DNA of 5,232 bases from a virus (taxonomy: Duplodnaviria > Heunggongvirae > Uroviricota > Caudoviricetes). Numbering within the stretch: the first letter of the stretch is position 1; every line of letters starts with the position of its first letter. Made by a program: the position numbers and the translations under genes. The stretch lies in IMG/VR virus record IMGVR_UViG_2690316188_000006. The stretch is one strand, 5' to 3'. A model generated the notes under the pieces. The model was not told the origin of the DNA and searched no databases. It was given only the letters and a program-made list of their open reading frames with translations. This document shows, piece after piece, positions 1 to 4,769 of the stretch.

Positions 1-135
1 TGCCTGGTGCCTCCAGGTGACGTTAACCAGTTAACAATTAACGCCGGATACAGAGAATCCACCCATAACACTGTTTTTGGTTTTAACTGTTCCGCGTGCG
101 CTCAGCCGCATTCACCACATCACAAAATTCACTTT

Positions 136-193
136 AAAAAGGGCGGCAGAGCAGTCACGGAGTAAAACTGATACCGCCAAACGTCACCAGAAA
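136..193 (-). ncRNA. dicF: DicF antisense sRNA of the dicB-type operon, including its 3' intrinsic terminator
   Basis: Reverse complement of 136-193 reads TTTCTGGTGACGTTTGGCGGTATCAGTTTTACTCCGTGACTGCTCTGCCGCCCTTTTT, which matches DicF as I recall it and ends in GC-rich sequence plus a T5 run. It sits downstream of ydfC-like genes on the same strand, as in Qin. Ends are approximate. Confidence 0.7.
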
Positions 194-1068: not shown

Positions 1069-1204
1069 GTTGACCTCATTTCCCCTTAACGCCGGGGTAG
1101 CGGAACAAAAACCTGCTGCATAGTTATTAAAGTTGAACCCTGCCGTCATGTTCTTACGCCTCGGGCTGGCTACTTAACCCCTGACCACTGCCTGGTAACT
1201 CGAA

Positions 1205-1394
1205 TGCCACAACCGGAAGCGCACGGTCGACGAAAATTTAACGACAGGCTATCTATGAACCAGCTACCTCGCCGTGCGCTTTCGCGTTATGGTCTGACTT
1301 TTCAGGGAAATATCCTTTCAGTAAACTGTCAGTGCCGGATGCTCACCCGTGTCCGGCGCACGCACTCCACCTCACCCGTGGAGAACTCCTTAAT
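1205..1394. repeat. 190-bp duplicated element, copy R2 (ectopic copy between orf92 and ydfA)
   Basis: 189/190 identical to R1. Left edge abuts the 134-bp ydfA leader identity block at 1204/1205. To the right, similarity to the R1 flank decays gradually over about 15 bp. Confidence 0.85.
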
Positions 1395-1416
1395 CACCAA
1401 CCCTCAGGAGGGTGAA

Positions 1417-1692
1417 ATGTCGACTGAAAATGATGAAATCATTAACTCCCTGATACGCCAGATTAATAATTTTGATAAAGCATTGCAACATGCTGCGGCG
1501 CGTAGTGATATAACTCTTTTAGCAATTTCATTTCTTGCATCTGTTATGGATAAAAATGAAGTCGTACGACAGAGTCTTGTTGATTATATCGACTCGCTTC
1601 AACCCGGCACTTTCAATCATGAGAGCTTCAATCATGAGAAAGAGCATGTTAAGTCTGTAATTAATTCTCTTATTTTGAATCAAAAGAATTAA
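1417..1692 (+). CDS. Hypothetical protein orf92 (92 aa), unknown function
   Basis: ATG at 1417 with AGGAGG 5 nt upstream, stop TAA at 1690-1692. AT-rich relative to neighbours. Predicted helical with no obvious transmembrane segment. The ORF-track entry 1204-1692 is the same frame extended upstream through R2. Confidence 0.55.
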   Translation: MSTENDEIINSLIRQINNFDKALQHAAARSDITLLAISFLASVMDKNEVVRQSLVDYIDSLQPGTFNHESFNHEKEHVKSVINSLILNQKN

Positions 1693-1990
1693 TGCTTTTT
1701 GTTGCAAAGTAATTTTCAAGGGGTTCTATTCGAATCCCTTTCTTTTTCATTAACAAGCCAAACCCCTTATCAATGATGTCCATTAGATCCAGGAAGTATT
1801 TTTCATGTAAATCCTGGTTATCAGAGAGCTGCTTCTCTTCGTACAGCCCGATAAAGGCTCGGCGTACGTTACCGGATATATTGTCGATGGTTTCTTTTTC
1901 TACGGTACTCAGGTCAAGAGTCGCCAGTTGAGAGCGAACCACATTCGATGCCATTTCCTGGAATGGTACTGGTAAATCTTTAAATTCCAT
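1670..1990 (-). CDS. Hypothetical protein orf106 (106 aa; 110 aa if started at ATG 2002), unknown function
   Basis: ATG at 1990 with GAGG 7 nt upstream. The alternative ATG at 2002 overlaps the ydfA-copy-2 stop (TGATG). Stop at 1672-1670. Its 3' end overlaps orf92 by 23 bp (1670-1692), convergently. Confidence 0.6.
   Translation of the reverse strand: MEFKDLPVPFQEMASNVVRSQLATLDLSTVEKETIDNISGNVRRAFIGLYEEKQLSDNQDLHEKYFLDLMDIIDKGFGLLMKKKGIRIEPLENYFATKSINSFDSK
1720..1747 (+). terminator. Putative intrinsic terminator for orf92
   Basis: GGGGTTC / GAATCCC 7-bp stem (one G-U pair) with 5-nt loop, followed by TTTCTTTTT, starting 28 nt after the orf92 stop. Lies inside the orf106 coding region on the other strand. 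Confidence 0.35.
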
Positions 1991-2001
1991 CGTCAACCTC
2001 A

Positions 2002-2154
2002 TCAGTCAGTGTTTCTGGTTAACCAGCGACGCGCGCCAGCTTCAGTTTTAAACGTTTTGCTTCTGGTATATGTCATCGCGGTAAACGTGCCGTCCTGGTT
2101 GGGAAACACGCCGCATACCAGAGATTCGTTGTTGCCAAGCTCGATAGTATCCAT
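2002..2154 (-). CDS. YdfA-like protein, second diverged copy (50 aa from the internal ATG; in-frame ORF extends to 2235, 77 aa)
   Basis: Paralog of the 913-1068 gene. The 5' 134 bp (2157-2290) is identical to 1071-1204, and divergence increases toward the 3' end. Same RBS arrangement as copy 1. Confidence 0.7.
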   Translation of the reverse strand: MDTIELGNNESLVCGVFPNQDGTFTAMTYTRSKTFKTEAGARRWLTRNTD

Positions 2155-2332
2155 GCTGACCTCATTTCCCCTTAACGCCGGGGTAGCGGAACAAAAACCT
2201 GCTGCATAGTTATTAAAGTTGAACCCTGCCGTCATGTTCTTACGCCTCGGGCTGGCTACTTAACCCCTGACCACTGCCTGGTAACTCGAAGTATTGCCCT
2301 GCATTCTGTGGGGTGGGGTGGGTGGCAGGTAT

Positions 2333-2361
2333 ATAATGTACTTTGCGTTCATTGTTGTAAA
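2333..2361 (-). promoter_or_regulatory. Putative leftward early promoter (pL/dicBp analog) with operator-like GTAC inverted repeats
   Basis: On the minus strand: TTTACA (2361-2356), 17-nt spacer, CATTAT (2338-2333). Overlapped by GTACTTT..AAAGTAC inverted repeat (2338-2366) and ATGTAC motifs also found in the cI-cro intergenic region. Position is right for driving the leftward operon. Confidence 0.4.
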
Positions 2362-2451
2362 GTACTTTTAGTACATTCTGTGTGTAAAAAAATGAGATGG
2401 GATAAAGTGAAGCACAAACCCGGAGGAAGGCGCTACCGGATTTATGCTGGT

Positions 2452-2871
2452 TTAAGAGGCTTTTTGTTTTTTCTTTCGTGCTAACTCTTCGTAAATTGCA
2501 TTGTACTTCTGTTTTTTCTCTTCAAGAGTTTTTAAAAGTTCATCTGTCTCACTGTCAGGGAGCTCGTCCAGAAGGTCAATGATGATTTTTTGTCTTGGAT
2601 TTAACTCCTGATAGAAACGTACCTGTCCACTTTCTTCTGTATCCTCTCCCAAAAGATAGGTTGGTGTTGTTCCTATTAGTGTTGCTAATTCCCTTAATTT
2701 CTCCCGGCGAGGAATTGTTTCGCCATTAAACCATTTGCTAACCGCTTTTGGTGTTAATTTCATTCGACGGGCAATTTCTGCCTGCCTTCCATGTTGTTCA
2801 TAACCAGCATTTTCACAGGCTAGCGCAAGCCTACTGGCGAACTCTTTACGCGCTTTATCTTCATGAACCAT
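2452..2871 (-). CDS. Prophage repressor, XRE-family HTH (CI/DicA-like), 139 aa
   Basis: N-terminal HTH_XRE-like segment (QAEIARRMKLTPKAVSKWFNGETIP) and an acidic/helical C-terminal tail reminiscent of DicA. Divergent from the cro-like gene. No SD before ATG 2871 (leaderless-type start). Confidence 0.85.
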   Translation of the reverse strand: MVHEDKARKEFASRLALACENAGYEQHGRQAEIARRMKLTPKAVSKWFNGETIPRREKLRELATLIGTTPTYLLGEDTEESGQVRFYQELNPRQKIIIDLLDELPDSETDELLKTLEEKKQKYNAIYEELARKKKQKAS

Positions 2872-2950
2872 AAGTTCAATGATATTCGCTCTTGAATGTA
2901 CTGTCAGTTCTGTTATAGCATGTACTCAAAGTTCACATTGTGAGGGTGAT
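2872..2950. promoter_or_regulatory. Divergent overlapping promoter/operator region (pRM-like leftward, pR-like rightward)
   Basis: Minus strand: CTGACA (2907-2902), 17 nt, TATCAT (2884-2879), 7 nt, ATG, predicting a leaderless repressor mRNA. Plus strand: TTGAAT (2892-2897), 16 nt, extended -10 TGtTATAGC (2911-2919). ATGTACT repeats at 2896-2902 and 2920-2926; near-palindromes ACTGTCAGT (2900-2908) and CACATTGTG. Confidence 0.5.
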
Positions 2951-3205
2951 ATGAACCAGAAAACACTTGAAGATGTAATCAAAACTGTTCGCGTTGCTGT
3001 TGTGGCCGACGTTTGTGGTGTCAGCCAAAGAGCAATCTATAAATGGATGGATAACGGAAAATTGCCTCGCACAGAATATACCGGCGAAACAAATTACGCT
3101 GAAAAAATCGCTCTTGCATCAAACGGATTATTTTCTGCCGATGCAATTTTAACTATTGGCAGGAATAAAACTACTACGAAAAAGCTGATGGGAGTTGATT
3201 CATGA
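2951..3205 (+). CDS. Cro-like / YdaS-family HTH regulator (84 aa)
   Basis: ATG at 2951 with GAGGGTGAT upstream. HTH-like segment VADVCGVSQRAIYKWMDNGKLP. First rightward gene opposite the repressor. The longer ORF-track start (2879) lacks an RBS and would overlap the operators. Confidence 0.8.
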   Translation: MNQKTLEDVIKTVRVAVVADVCGVSQRAIYKWMDNGKLPRTEYTGETNYAEKIALASNGLFSADAILTIGRNKTTTKKLMGVDS

Positions 3206-3627
3206 AAATCAAGCATGAACACATCCGCATGGCGATGAATGCCTGGGCGCATCCGGACGGCGAAAAAGTACCGGCTGCGAAAATTACCAAAGCATATTTC
3301 GAGCTGGGAATGACGTTCCCGGAACTGTATGACGACAGCCATCCGGAAGCCCTGGCTCGCAATACTCAGAAAATTTTCCGCTGGGTGGAGAAAGACACCC
3401 CTGATGCGGTTAAAAAAATTCAGGCGTTGTTACCAGCTATCGAAAAAGCAATGCCACCTCTGCTGGTGGCCCGAATGCGCAGTCATAGCTCAGCCTATTT
3501 TCGGGAACTAGTGGAGACGCGGGAACGACTGGTGAGAGACGCTGATGATTTTGTCGCAGTGGCGATCGCTGGTTTCAACCAGATGAATCGTGGTGGCCCT
3601 GCAGGAAATATTGTGGCTGTGCATTGA
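3202..3627 (+). CDS. ydaT: YdaT-like protein (141 aa), proposed CII-analog regulator / formerly called a toxin
   Basis: Start MKIKHEHI... resembles Rac YdaT as I recall it. ATG 3202 overlaps the cro-like stop (ATGA, 4-bp overlap). Position is second gene of the rightward operon. Confidence 0.8.
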   Translation: MKIKHEHIRMAMNAWAHPDGEKVPAAKITKAYFELGMTFPELYDDSHPEALARNTQKIFRWVEKDTPDAVKKIQALLPAIEKAMPPLLVARMRSHSSAYFRELVETRERLVRDADDFVAVAIAGFNQMNRGGPAGNIVAVH

Positions 3628-3698: not shown

Positions 3699-4769
3699 AT
3701 GGCTAACGCCTGGCTCAGATTATGGCATGACATGCCAAATGACCCTAAGTGGCGAACAATTGCCAGGGTGTCAGGGCAGCCAATTGCAACAGTGATGGCA
3801 GTGTATATCCACCTCCTGGTGAGCGCGTCACGAAATGTCACGCGAGGTCACATTGATGTCACGACAGAAGATTTGGCAAGTGCGCTCGACGTGACAGAAG
3901 AGGTAATTGATTCAATTTTGCAGACGATGCAGGGGCGGGTACTTGATGGTGATTTAATCACTGGATGGGAAAAACGCCAGGTGCTTAAAGAGGACAACGG
4001 CAATATTTCGCAAACCGCAAAATCTCCTGCAGAGCGCAAGAGGGCGCAGCGAGAGAGGGAAAGAAAGCGGGAACAAAATGGCGATTGTCACGGCGCGTCA
4101 CGAAATGTCACGCACATGTCACGACGAGTCACGACAGATAAAGATACAGATAAAGATACAGATCAAGAAGATCAAAACACTATGGTCCATGGCGTAAAAA
4201 ACGCCACGAACCAGGCAGGGGATGTTCAGACCGTCAATCCTGGTCAGCCAGCAGGCACGACACCGGAAGCCGATTCAGCGTATGCGCTGAAAGCCGATTC
4301 GGGCGCTGTGCAGCAGGTGATGACCGCAAGGCCGGAGCAATCACACCAACTGCAGCAGCCCGAAGCCGATTCCGCCATTCAGCGGGAAGCCGATCGGGTA
4401 GTCCCGGAAAACACCGGTCAGTCTGTGGGACGAGTGGATTATCCGGATGTGTTCGAACAGGTCTGGCGGGAGTACCCGTTGCGTGCCGGAGCAAACCCGA
4501 AGAAATCCGCTTTCAGTGCCTGGAAGGCCAGATTACGCGAGGGGGTGCCACCAGAGGCCATGCTGGATGGCGTGAGGCGTTACGCAAGATACTTGGCGGC
4601 TACCGGGAAAGCGGGAACGGAATTTGTTCAGCGAGCGACGACGTTTTTTGGACCGGACCGGAATTTTGAGAACCCCTGGTTTCTCCCGGTAAGCGGCACG
4701 AACAACCAGCGTTGTGTGAATCATATTACTGAACCGGATAACGAAATTCCGCCGGGCTTCAGGGGGTAA
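3699..4769 (+). CDS. Phage replisome organizer / replication initiator (lambda O functional analog), 356 aa
   Basis: N-terminus AWLRLWHDMPNDPKWRTIARV... resembles the phage replisome-organizer N-terminal domain. Basic linker ERKRAQRERERKRE. Internal iteron arrays. AGAGG 5 nt before ATG 3699 (the track's GTG at 3693 is an alternative). Stop TAA at 4767-4769. Confidence 0.85.
   Translation: MANAWLRLWHDMPNDPKWRTIARVSGQPIATVMAVYIHLLVSASRNVTRGHIDVTTEDLASALDVTEEVIDSILQTMQGRVLDGDLITGWEKRQVLKEDNGNISQTAKSPAERKRAQRERERKREQNGDCHGASRNVTHMSRRVTTDKDTDKDTDQEDQNTMVHGVKNATNQAGDVQTVNPGQPAGTTPEADSAYALKADSGAVQQVMTARPEQSHQLQQPEADSAIQREADRVVPENTGQSVGRVDYPDVFEQVWREYPLRAGANPKKSAFSAWKARLREGVPPEAMLDGVRRYARYLAATGKAGTEFVQRATTFFGPDRNFENPWFLPVSGTNNQRCVNHITEPDNEIPPGFRG
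3825..3867. repeat. Iteron-like array 1: four GTCAC(G/A) repeats at 10-11 bp spacing inside the replication gene
   Basis: GTCACG at 3827, 3837, 3858 and GTCACA at 3847. 3823-3843 is a 21-bp exact copy of 4093-4113. Confidence 0.5.
4085..4174. other. Putative origin of replication: iteron array 2 (five GTCACG repeats, 10-11 bp period) followed by an AT-rich tract with a tandem 12-mer and two GATC sites
   Basis: GTCACG at 4087, 4097, 4107, 4118, 4128. Then GATAAAGATACA twice (4137-4160) and GATCAAGAAGATC. Lies in the linker region of the initiator gene, as lambda ori lies within O. Confidence 0.5.

Follow-up and report, generated by a model that had tools for sequence, protein, structure and literature searches.

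The 79 bp that separate a leftward repressor gene from a rightward cro-like gene in a virus of the Caudoviricetes (IMG/VR record IMGVR_UViG_2690316188_000006; the whole 5,232-nucleotide stretch that was analyzed is called the window here) raise two questions: which immunity system these base pairs serve, and how a repressor gene with no Shine-Dalgarno (SD) sequence before its ATG is expressed. A sequence-only reading of positions 2872 to 2950 had proposed a compact immunity switch with overlapping divergent promoters, operator sets built around ATGTAC/GTAC motifs, and a repressor mRNA without a leader. Our comparisons support the identification of 2872 to 2950 as the oR region of an HK022-type lambdoid immunity switch from a widespread Escherichia coli prophage. 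Switches of this kind are already known, and this member had not been characterized before. We give a probability of roughly 75% to the explanation as a whole, in which an HK022-type switch would be combined with a leaderless repressor transcript from the promoter CTGACA-17-TATCAT.

The window corresponds to the early-regulatory region of an E. coli lambdoid prophage. A 1-kb segment around the switch (2250 to 3250) matched many E. coli chromosomes at 99.8% and the complete temperate phage Tritos at 99.2%, and it was found at a coverage of at least 80% in 1,047 of 5,426 complete E. coli genomes. The genes ydfB, ydfC, and dicB are annotated in the matching genomes and in Tritos. On the plus strand, cro is followed by a YdaT-family gene, an O-like replication gene, and a DUF977 gene, and on the minus strand a set of ydf-like genes lies between the repressor and the small RNA DicF (Table 1). 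An Rfam scan of the whole window returned DicF and a subthreshold STnc100 fragment and detected no RNA element within the switch itself.

Table 1. Coordinates of genes and of predicted regulatory features in the window, in order of position
Feature	Position	Strand	Sequence or elements	Basis and remarks
DicF sRNA	141-192	minus		Rfam, 76.7 bits
ydfC/ydfB-like genes and two DUF1391 (YdfA-like) genes	between DicF and repressor	minus		
Leftward early promoter (pL/dicBp-like)	2333..2361	minus	TTTACA-17-CATTAT	promoter scan 9/12; aligned to annotated HK022 pL
oL1	2337-2351		TGTACTTTGCGTTCA	overlaps -10 and spacer of leftward promoter; HK022 oL annotation
oL2	2361-2375		AGTACTTTTAGTACA	adjoins -35 of leftward promoter; HK022 oL annotation
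Repressor	2452..2871	minus		139 aa; same start annotated in E. coli genomes and phage Tritos
O3	2864-2878		TGAACCATAAGTTCA	identical to HK022 oR3 and oR1; dyad center is the A of the repressor ATG
Repressor maintenance promoter (PRM/PM-like)	2879..2907	minus	-35 CTGACA 2907..2902; 17-nt spacer; -10 TATCAT 2884..2879	promoter scan 10/12
cro promoter (pR-like)	2892..2921	plus	-35 TTGAAT 2892-2897	aligned to annotated HK022 pR
O2	2897-2911		TGTACTGTCAGTTCT	in spacer of cro promoter; center at -33 from repressor ATG
O1	2921-2935		TGTACTCAAAGTTCA	covers predicted start of cro promoter; center at -57 from repressor ATG
cro	2951..3205	plus	SD GAGGGTG 2942-2948	84 aa; PGAP start identical
Candidate YdaT box, perfect inverted repeat	3195..3212		TTGATT-N6-AATCAA	cro-stop/ydaT-start junction
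YdaT-family protein (CII analogue of Rac-type prophages)	3202..3627	plus		Pfam YdaT_toxin, E 1e-9; function from PMC11879457

The repressor protein was compared with those of known lambdoid phages. Pfam returned HTH_3/HTH_31 and nothing else for this protein, and the S24 (LexA-like) domain for self-cleavage and oligomerization was absent. Identity to HK022 CI was 47% over residues 4 to 102 (E 6e-32) and 57% over the first 78 residues, and the recognition helices of the two proteins were almost identical (TPKAVSKWFNGE here versus TPKAISKWFNGE in HK022 CI). The match to K-12 DicA, at 29% identity, extended over 112 residues that included the C-terminal part (E 5e-15). These alignments make the repressor a chimera in which an HK022-CI-type helix-turn-helix (HTH) head (residues 1 to about 78) is joined to a short DicA-like tail. 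Its operator specificity appears to go with the head and not with the tail, since the DicA operator Oc (a 20-bp inverted repeat, TTGTTAGTCATAACTAACAA) had no match in the window when up to three mismatches were allowed and HK022-type operators were absent from Qin. A switch of DicA specificity was considered in view of the DicA-like tail and the dicBF context and was rejected because Oc was absent. RacR was also discarded as the closest relative, as its match was confined to 33 residues (E 1e-4). Among the loci surveyed below, the 139-residue short form was shared with an identical Shigella copy alone; the other repressors had 221 to 252 residues, save for one Klebsiella locus with 200. HK022 CI is known to bind cooperatively, and a repressor with this short DicA-like tail may be unable to do so. 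On the analogy of DicA/Rem and the Gifsy repressors, the switch is probably induced by an antirepressor or by stochastic switching and not by RecA-stimulated cleavage.

The relationship to HK022 extended from the protein to the DNA. In a distant DNA search, the segment from 2711 to 2936, which contains the repressor head and oR, matched phages HK022, HK75, and O276, as well as several phages of Klebsiella, Citrobacter, Salmonella, and Providencia. In the HK022 (GenBank X16093) and HK75 records, oR3, oR2, oR1, pR, oL sites, and pL are annotated. An operator pattern taken independently from the HK022 annotation (TGWAC-N5-GTWCA, at most one mismatch) was searched for in the whole window. Five sites were found, versus 0.42 expected, all of them in the two control regions, and none of 200 shuffles reached five. 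Allowing two mismatches gave no further operators beyond chance, with no third oL site and no OFR-like site after cro. A 17-mer model used at first (GAATGTACTNNNAGTTC, four sites versus 0.01 expected) was dropped in favor of the 15-bp dyad, as it missed O3. Operator sequences were also looked for in literature full texts, and none were found there.

The five dyads changed how the motifs of the sequence-only reading are understood. The motif coordinates had all been given correctly, but the motifs are not GTAC-centered words; they are half-sites of 15-bp dyads of the form TG(A/T)AC-N5-GT(A/T)CA. The proposal of oR and oL operator sets for one repressor held, except that oR has three sites. O3, which contains no GTAC, had been missed; most of it (2864 to 2871) lies to the left of 2872 to 2950 and covers the start codon. 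Repressor codons 2 and 3 (GTT CAT) form one of its half-sites, with the result that the predicted transcription start, the start codon, and codons 2 and 3 (Val, His/Gln) all fall within O3. The second site, O2, matches its HK022 counterpart at 13 of 15 positions, and its central 5 bp plus one more make up the -35 hexamer of the repressor promoter.

The arrangement of these sites was that of HK022. Between O3 and the start codon of cro the alignment was free of gaps, both intergenic regions were 79 bp long, and the three 15-bp operators had center spacings of 33 and 24 bp here as in HK022 and HK75. In HK022, too, oR3 overlaps the start of cI, and 7 nt separate a -10 hexamer from the cI ATG. The oL/pL stretch aligned equally well and again without gaps, and the pR and pL hexamers occupied the same places. 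Cro was 58% identical to HK022 Cro, and its SD sequence had an anti-SD pairing energy of -6.1 kcal/mol. The operators, oL/pL, the repressor head, and Cro are all homologous to their HK022 counterparts, which identifies the locus as an HK022-type immunity module. The earlier proposal of a lambdoid switch with divergent repressor and cro genes is upheld by the same gap-free alignments of oR/pR and oL/pL.

Of the two divergent, overlapping promoters that had been read at oR, the minus-strand one was recovered by the consensus scan with 10 of 12 matches. The plus-strand cro promoter fell below the threshold of that scan and was placed by its position-for-position homology to HK022 pR. Two candidates for its -10 hexamer were present, TATAGC (2914 to 2919), which aligns with CATAAT in HK022, and TAGCAT (2916 to 2921), which would leave an 18-nt spacer. 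The two oR promoters face away from each other, their -35 regions interleave, and their predicted starts are approximately 55 bp apart; they should therefore compete. In the second control region, which lies 3' of the repressor gene, the leftward promoter is predicted from its hexamers and its HK022 alignment to drive the ydfA-like genes through to DicF as a dicBF-type operon.

We then considered where the repressor transcript begins. Read along the minus strand, CTGACA is followed by 17 nt, TATCAT, the 7 nt TGAACTT, and the ATG; the earlier placement of TATCAT 7 nt before the ATG at 2871 was therefore correct to the base. This 10-of-12 match was the sole intergenic site reported by the promoter scan. 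In a simulation, a match of at least 10 of 12 that placed the start site within 1 nt of the ATG occurred in 0.02 to 0.09% of random 79-mers. In start-site choice by sigma-70, a pyrimidine at -1 and a purine at +1 are favored. Because a T precedes it and it is the eighth base after the -10 hexamer, the A of the ATG, at 2871, is the favored start and the predicted +1.

The translation signals were consistent with such a start. The repressor ATG (2871 to 2869, minus strand) is the first canonical start past an in-frame stop at 2928 to 2926; no in-frame ATG, GTG, or TTG lies between that stop and this ATG, and the next ATG of the gene is codon 37, within the HTH. Anti-SD pairing upstream of the repressor ATG was -2.2 kcal/mol, versus -5.9 to -10.8 kcal/mol for cro, the ydaT-like gene, the O-like gene, the DUF977 gene, both ydfA-like genes, ydfC, and the open reading frame at 1417, which agrees with the original statement that the repressor has no SD. 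Two small minus-strand open reading frames, at 2002 and 953, had pairing as weak as that of the repressor or weaker (-2.2 and -0.1 kcal/mol, respectively). Leaderless initiation in E. coli needs an AUG start codon, and the repressor start was ATG in each of the 34 loci of the survey set described below, the window included. The predicted leaderless mRNA, folded over its first 80 nt, had an unremarkable structure (z score of -0.36), with the first three nucleotides, the AUG, unpaired.

Published data on related repressors point in the same direction. In a differential RNA sequencing (dRNA-seq) study of E. coli K-12, just five mRNAs had leaders shorter than 10 nt, and three of the five encode prophage repressors: racR and ymfK with 0 nt and dicA with 3 nt (PMC4681348). 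Both dicA and ymfK were among the genes analyzed by RLM-RT-PCR in that study (PMC4681348, Fig. S1). For HK022, the sequence upstream of cI (...tagttgaacttATGGTTCAACAG...) carries the label "PM-10" in a published construct (PMC8053113, supplementary figure). The label sits just upstream of the cI ATG, at the bases homologous to TATCAT, and thereby places the -10 of the HK022 maintenance promoter at these bases. From the promoter geometry, the mapped homologues, and the conservation described next, we infer that transcription of the repressor gene starts at the ATG and gives an mRNA with neither a leader nor an SD.

The conservation of this design was surveyed in related loci. A scan of one genome per species gave 34 loci, of which the 27 with a match from residue 1 were analyzed; adding the window and six phage loci gave a survey set that again numbered 34, with 7 loci from Pasteurellaceae and 27 from elsewhere. 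In the non-Pasteurellaceae group, 25 of 27 loci had an O3 whose center was exactly the A of the ATG. A -10 hexamer, defined by an A at the second position, a T at the sixth, and four or more of six consensus matches, was present at -13 to -8 in 24 of the 27 and in 25 when a 1-nt shift was allowed. All 27 proteins began with Met-Val, and residue 3 was Gln or His in 25; the corresponding codons, GTW CA(n), are the right half-site of O3. The central pentamer of O2 was TGACA, TGATA, or TGAAA in all 19 loci with O2 at -33, a pattern (TGAnA) that corresponds to the 3' portion of a TTGACA-like -35 hexamer. The centers of the other two sites were more variable: 14 variants were found for O1, and 8 were found for O3, in which the first two bases vary and the ATG at the end is constant.

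Conversely, the seven Pasteurellaceae relatives had kept CTGAAA-17-TATAAT beside the operator, but their ATG lay approximately 20 nt farther from the promoter and followed an SD of the AAGGTGA type (-4.3 to -6.1 kcal/mol). The promoter stays beside the operator when the ATG shifts, indicating that it travels with the operator. Among the surveyed relatives, loci with the ATG inside the operator had no SD, and those with a leader had one. This contrast provides the strongest computational support for a leaderless design.

In the mechanism that we propose, RNA polymerase would start at the A of the AUG, and the mRNA would be translated by the leaderless route, as is lambda cI from PRM. Repressor bound at O1 and O2 would lie over the start and the spacer of the cro promoter, and repressor bound at the oL pair would lie over the leftward promoter that serves the ydfA...dicF/dicB operon, so that occupancy of O1/O2 and oL would keep both the lytic and the cell-division-inhibitor genes off. 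Filling of O3 by Cro or by excess repressor would shut off the repressor promoter, and the perfect consensus of O3 predicts strong autorepression unless binding to a single site is weak. The -35 of the repressor promoter is inside O2, and for this reason the promoter is perhaps repressed in a lysogen with O1 and O2 filled. Repressor at O2 may indeed repress, or it may sit opposite sigma region 4 and be neutral or activating. Lambda CII at PRE is a back-face activator that flanks the -35. A comparable role for this repressor, which would flank the -35 from O2 and would not make a contact of the OR2-sigma type, with the start, the AUG, and codons 2 and 3 lying in O3, is a speculative extension that we consider improbable. 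Its basis is that the O2 dyad at -33 straddles the -35 and that its center was held as TGAnA in 19 relatives. A dimeric HTH protein normally does not read the center of its operator; a TGAnA center would fit a sigma region 4 that reads the central major groove opposite the bound repressor, an observation that allows this arrangement and does not prove it.

Three other explanations were weighed against the leaderless transcript from CTGACA-17-TATCAT. The first holds that most of the repressor comes from a leadered transcript, with TATCAT a minor promoter; this transcript would originate at a distal promoter of the PRE type, activated by YdaT and located near the cro/ydaT junction, and would run antisense through cro. 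The inverted repeat at this junction resembles the reference YdaT operator, ATGATT-n6-AATCAA, and in Rac, YdaT activates the reverse promoter PracR4 inside ydaS and so raises racR (PMC11879457). The burial of the proximal -35 in O2 also speaks for a distal source. However, a distal transcript would likewise lack an SD before the repressor ATG, and a -10 of consensus quality beside the 3195-to-3212 box was not found. Moreover, the proximal -10 is kept 7 nt from the ATG in 24 to 25 of the 27 relatives despite diverged flanks, and in the leadered Pasteurellaceae it stays with the operator and not with the ATG. We therefore regard the distal promoter as an unlikely main source. In lambda, PRE coexists with PRM, and both kinds of promoter also coexist in Rac, which makes a distal promoter a complement to the leaderless reading and not a replacement for it. 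By analogy, the 3195-to-3212 region is a plausible candidate for an establishment promoter whose leadered repressor transcript would coexist with the leaderless one.

A less probable explanation still is that the resemblance to a promoter arises incidentally from the operator sequences and that the true promoter lies elsewhere or the start codon further downstream. CTGACA is the center of O2 and TATCAT adjoins O3, and the conservation of both could reflect binding by the repressor or Cro. The variation among operator centers argues against this, as those of O1 and, apart from the ATG, O3 are free to change but that of O2 is always TGAnA and -35-like. The -10 lies outside the 15-bp operator and is nonetheless TAnnnT in 24 of 27 loci, and the homologous HK022 bases bear the "PM-10" label. 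A different start codon is disfavored by the lack of any upstream in-frame start and by the position of the next ATG, at codon 37, given that residues 1 to 36 are conserved with HK022 CI. Finally, the recurring motifs could be dismissed as chance or as generic AT-rich intergenic sequence, because GTAC words are short and common and the motif was originally defined by eye. The shuffle statistics for the five dyads effectively refute this, the 17-mer also exceeded its expectation, and the positions and spacing of the operators are conserved across genera; we assign it a negligible probability.

These results supply exact operator and promoter coordinates and a proposed mechanism for a region labeled "helix-turn-helix domain-containing protein" in databases, and they do not overturn current understanding. 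The region would gate the dicF/dicB cell-division-inhibitor operon. If the repressor reads HK022-type operators, as predicted, cross-immunity with HK022-like phages is possible, and the repressor is predicted to be induced by a route other than RecA-mediated cleavage. The locus adds one more case, with comparative support, to those that link leaderless mRNAs to repressors of mobile elements in E. coli. It is also an example of an operator that would double as transcription start, start codon, and first coding triplets. The leadered Pasteurellaceae and the other relatives, nearly all of them from Enterobacterales, form a natural pair for studying the evolution of a leaderless gene start.

The switch also differs from that of HK022 in several respects. 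HK022 CI has 235 residues with an S24 domain, whereas the repressor here has 139 residues and a DicA-like tail. Just two oL sites are present, with no OFR-like site after cro; the gene that follows cro is of the YdaT type and not a lambda-type cII; and the leftward operon is ydfA...dicF/dicB and not nun. The -10 of pR is also weaker here by consensus. HK022 CI is known to loop between OL and OR, and the HK022 operator arrangement is unlike that of lambda (PMC8053113).

Rac and CP-933P likewise have a divergent repressor/cro-like pair with a CII analogue of the YdaT family and an inverted-repeat YdaT box next to it, and racR mRNA, like the mRNA predicted here, has been mapped as leaderless, with a 0-nt leader. 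YdaS, however, is 17% identical to this Cro, and the intergenic region of Rac is 123 bp long and contains several promoters for racR as well as four operators for RacR (PMC11879457). With the DicA/DicC switch of Qin the locus shares a short noncleavable repressor with a homologous C-terminal part and the position of that repressor just upstream of a ydfA-ydfB-ydfC-dicF-dicB operon in the same orientation; dicA mRNA has a leader of just 3 nt, close to the leaderless mRNA predicted here. It differs from Qin in DNA-binding specificity, and DicC is 18% identical to this Cro. The resemblance to Gifsy GfoR-type repressors is one of class, by description: these are short lambdoid repressors without an Ala-Gly cleavage site, and they are inactivated by antirepressors (PMC10448788). 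A difference from Gifsy is that no antirepressor gene lies within the window.

Lambda cI mRNA from PRM is the textbook leaderless mRNA, and both systems have a maintenance-promoter -10 hexamer 6 to 7 nt before an AUG that lacks an SD. They also share three operators under divergent, overlapping cro and repressor control, and a separate establishment promoter is likely here as well. The operator sequences and the proteins are unrelated in detail. The start sites at oR are 82 bp apart in lambda, in contrast to a predicted distance of approximately 55 bp here. The OR3 operator of lambda is located upstream of the start, with OR2 centered near -42, where CI contacts sigma, whereas here O3 is centered on the predicted +1 and AUG and O2 is centered at -33, on the -35 hexamer itself.

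Among the loci in our survey of the repressor family, seven came from Pasteurellaceae, and in these we viewed the approximately 30 nt that precede position 1201 (L033, L037-L039, and L042-L044, from Haemophilus, Volucribacter, and Gallibacterium). Both the repressor promoter and its adjoining operator were retained in these loci, and the repressor was preceded by a leader of approximately 20 nt with an SD. The N-terminus of the repressor was MIT or MIS in these relatives, in place of MVQ or MVH. As judged from sequence, this arrangement is a natural leadered counterpart of the predicted leaderless repressor design. Two other loci, L026 (Enterobacterales bacterium CwR94) and L028 (Pantoea sp.), carried CAGGAAT or CAGGATT in place of the -10 hexamer, immediately 5' of the ATG and upstream of position 1201, and O3, the operator centered on the repressor ATG, was absent from L028. 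These two loci may have switched to another promoter or to an SD-like arrangement.

In the annotation of Tritos, the temperate phage that closely matches the window around the switch, Cro begins at an upstream ATG, 2879 (+), giving a protein of 108 amino acids (2879-3205), and this codon falls within the -10 of the repressor promoter. The start at ATG 2951 (84 amino acids) is favored by the HK022 Cro alignment, by PGAP, and by the position of the SD (2942-2948). A perfect inverted repeat lies across the cro stop codon and the start codon of the ydaT-like gene, and its consensus is similar to the reference sequence of the YdaT operator in Rac. From this candidate site, a CII-like activator would drive leftward establishment transcription of the repressor gene.

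The operon leftward of oL, under the control of the oL operators, is a cell-division-inhibitor operon of the dicBF type, since DicF was found within it. Its first module (a YdfA-like DUF1391 gene and flanks) and a 201-nt non-coding block were both duplicated in the window, forming two pairs of large direct repeats (94% and 98% identity), with operators present solely at the copy adjoining oL. An additional block, 1403-2010, sits between the repeat copies, and Pfam gave no match for either of its two ORFs. The coverage of the window by Tritos is only 88%, as would be expected if the insertion were absent from this phage.

Features of the leftward operon and the cro-ydaT junction
Feature	Position	Strand	Remarks
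DicF sRNA	141-192	-	Rfam, 76.7 bits, far over gathering score
STnc100-like partial match	1-139	-	Adjoins DicF; 28.5 bits, sub-threshold; truncated by window edge
Direct repeat pair 1	925-1204, 2011-2290		Large
Direct repeat pair 2	314-514, 1202-1402		Large
ORF in additional block	1417-1692	+	
ORF in additional block	1670-2002	-	
Inverted repeat	3195-3212		TTGATT-N6-AATCAA

Within the O-like replication gene, GTCACG-type repeats were clustered at 3827-3865 (four copies) and 4087-4135 (about five, spaced by approximately 10 nt), followed at 4134-4169 by three tandem 12-mers, ACAGATAAAGAT. Together these look like origin iterons inside the initiator gene, and in lambda the iterons of the origin are likewise embedded in the initiator gene.
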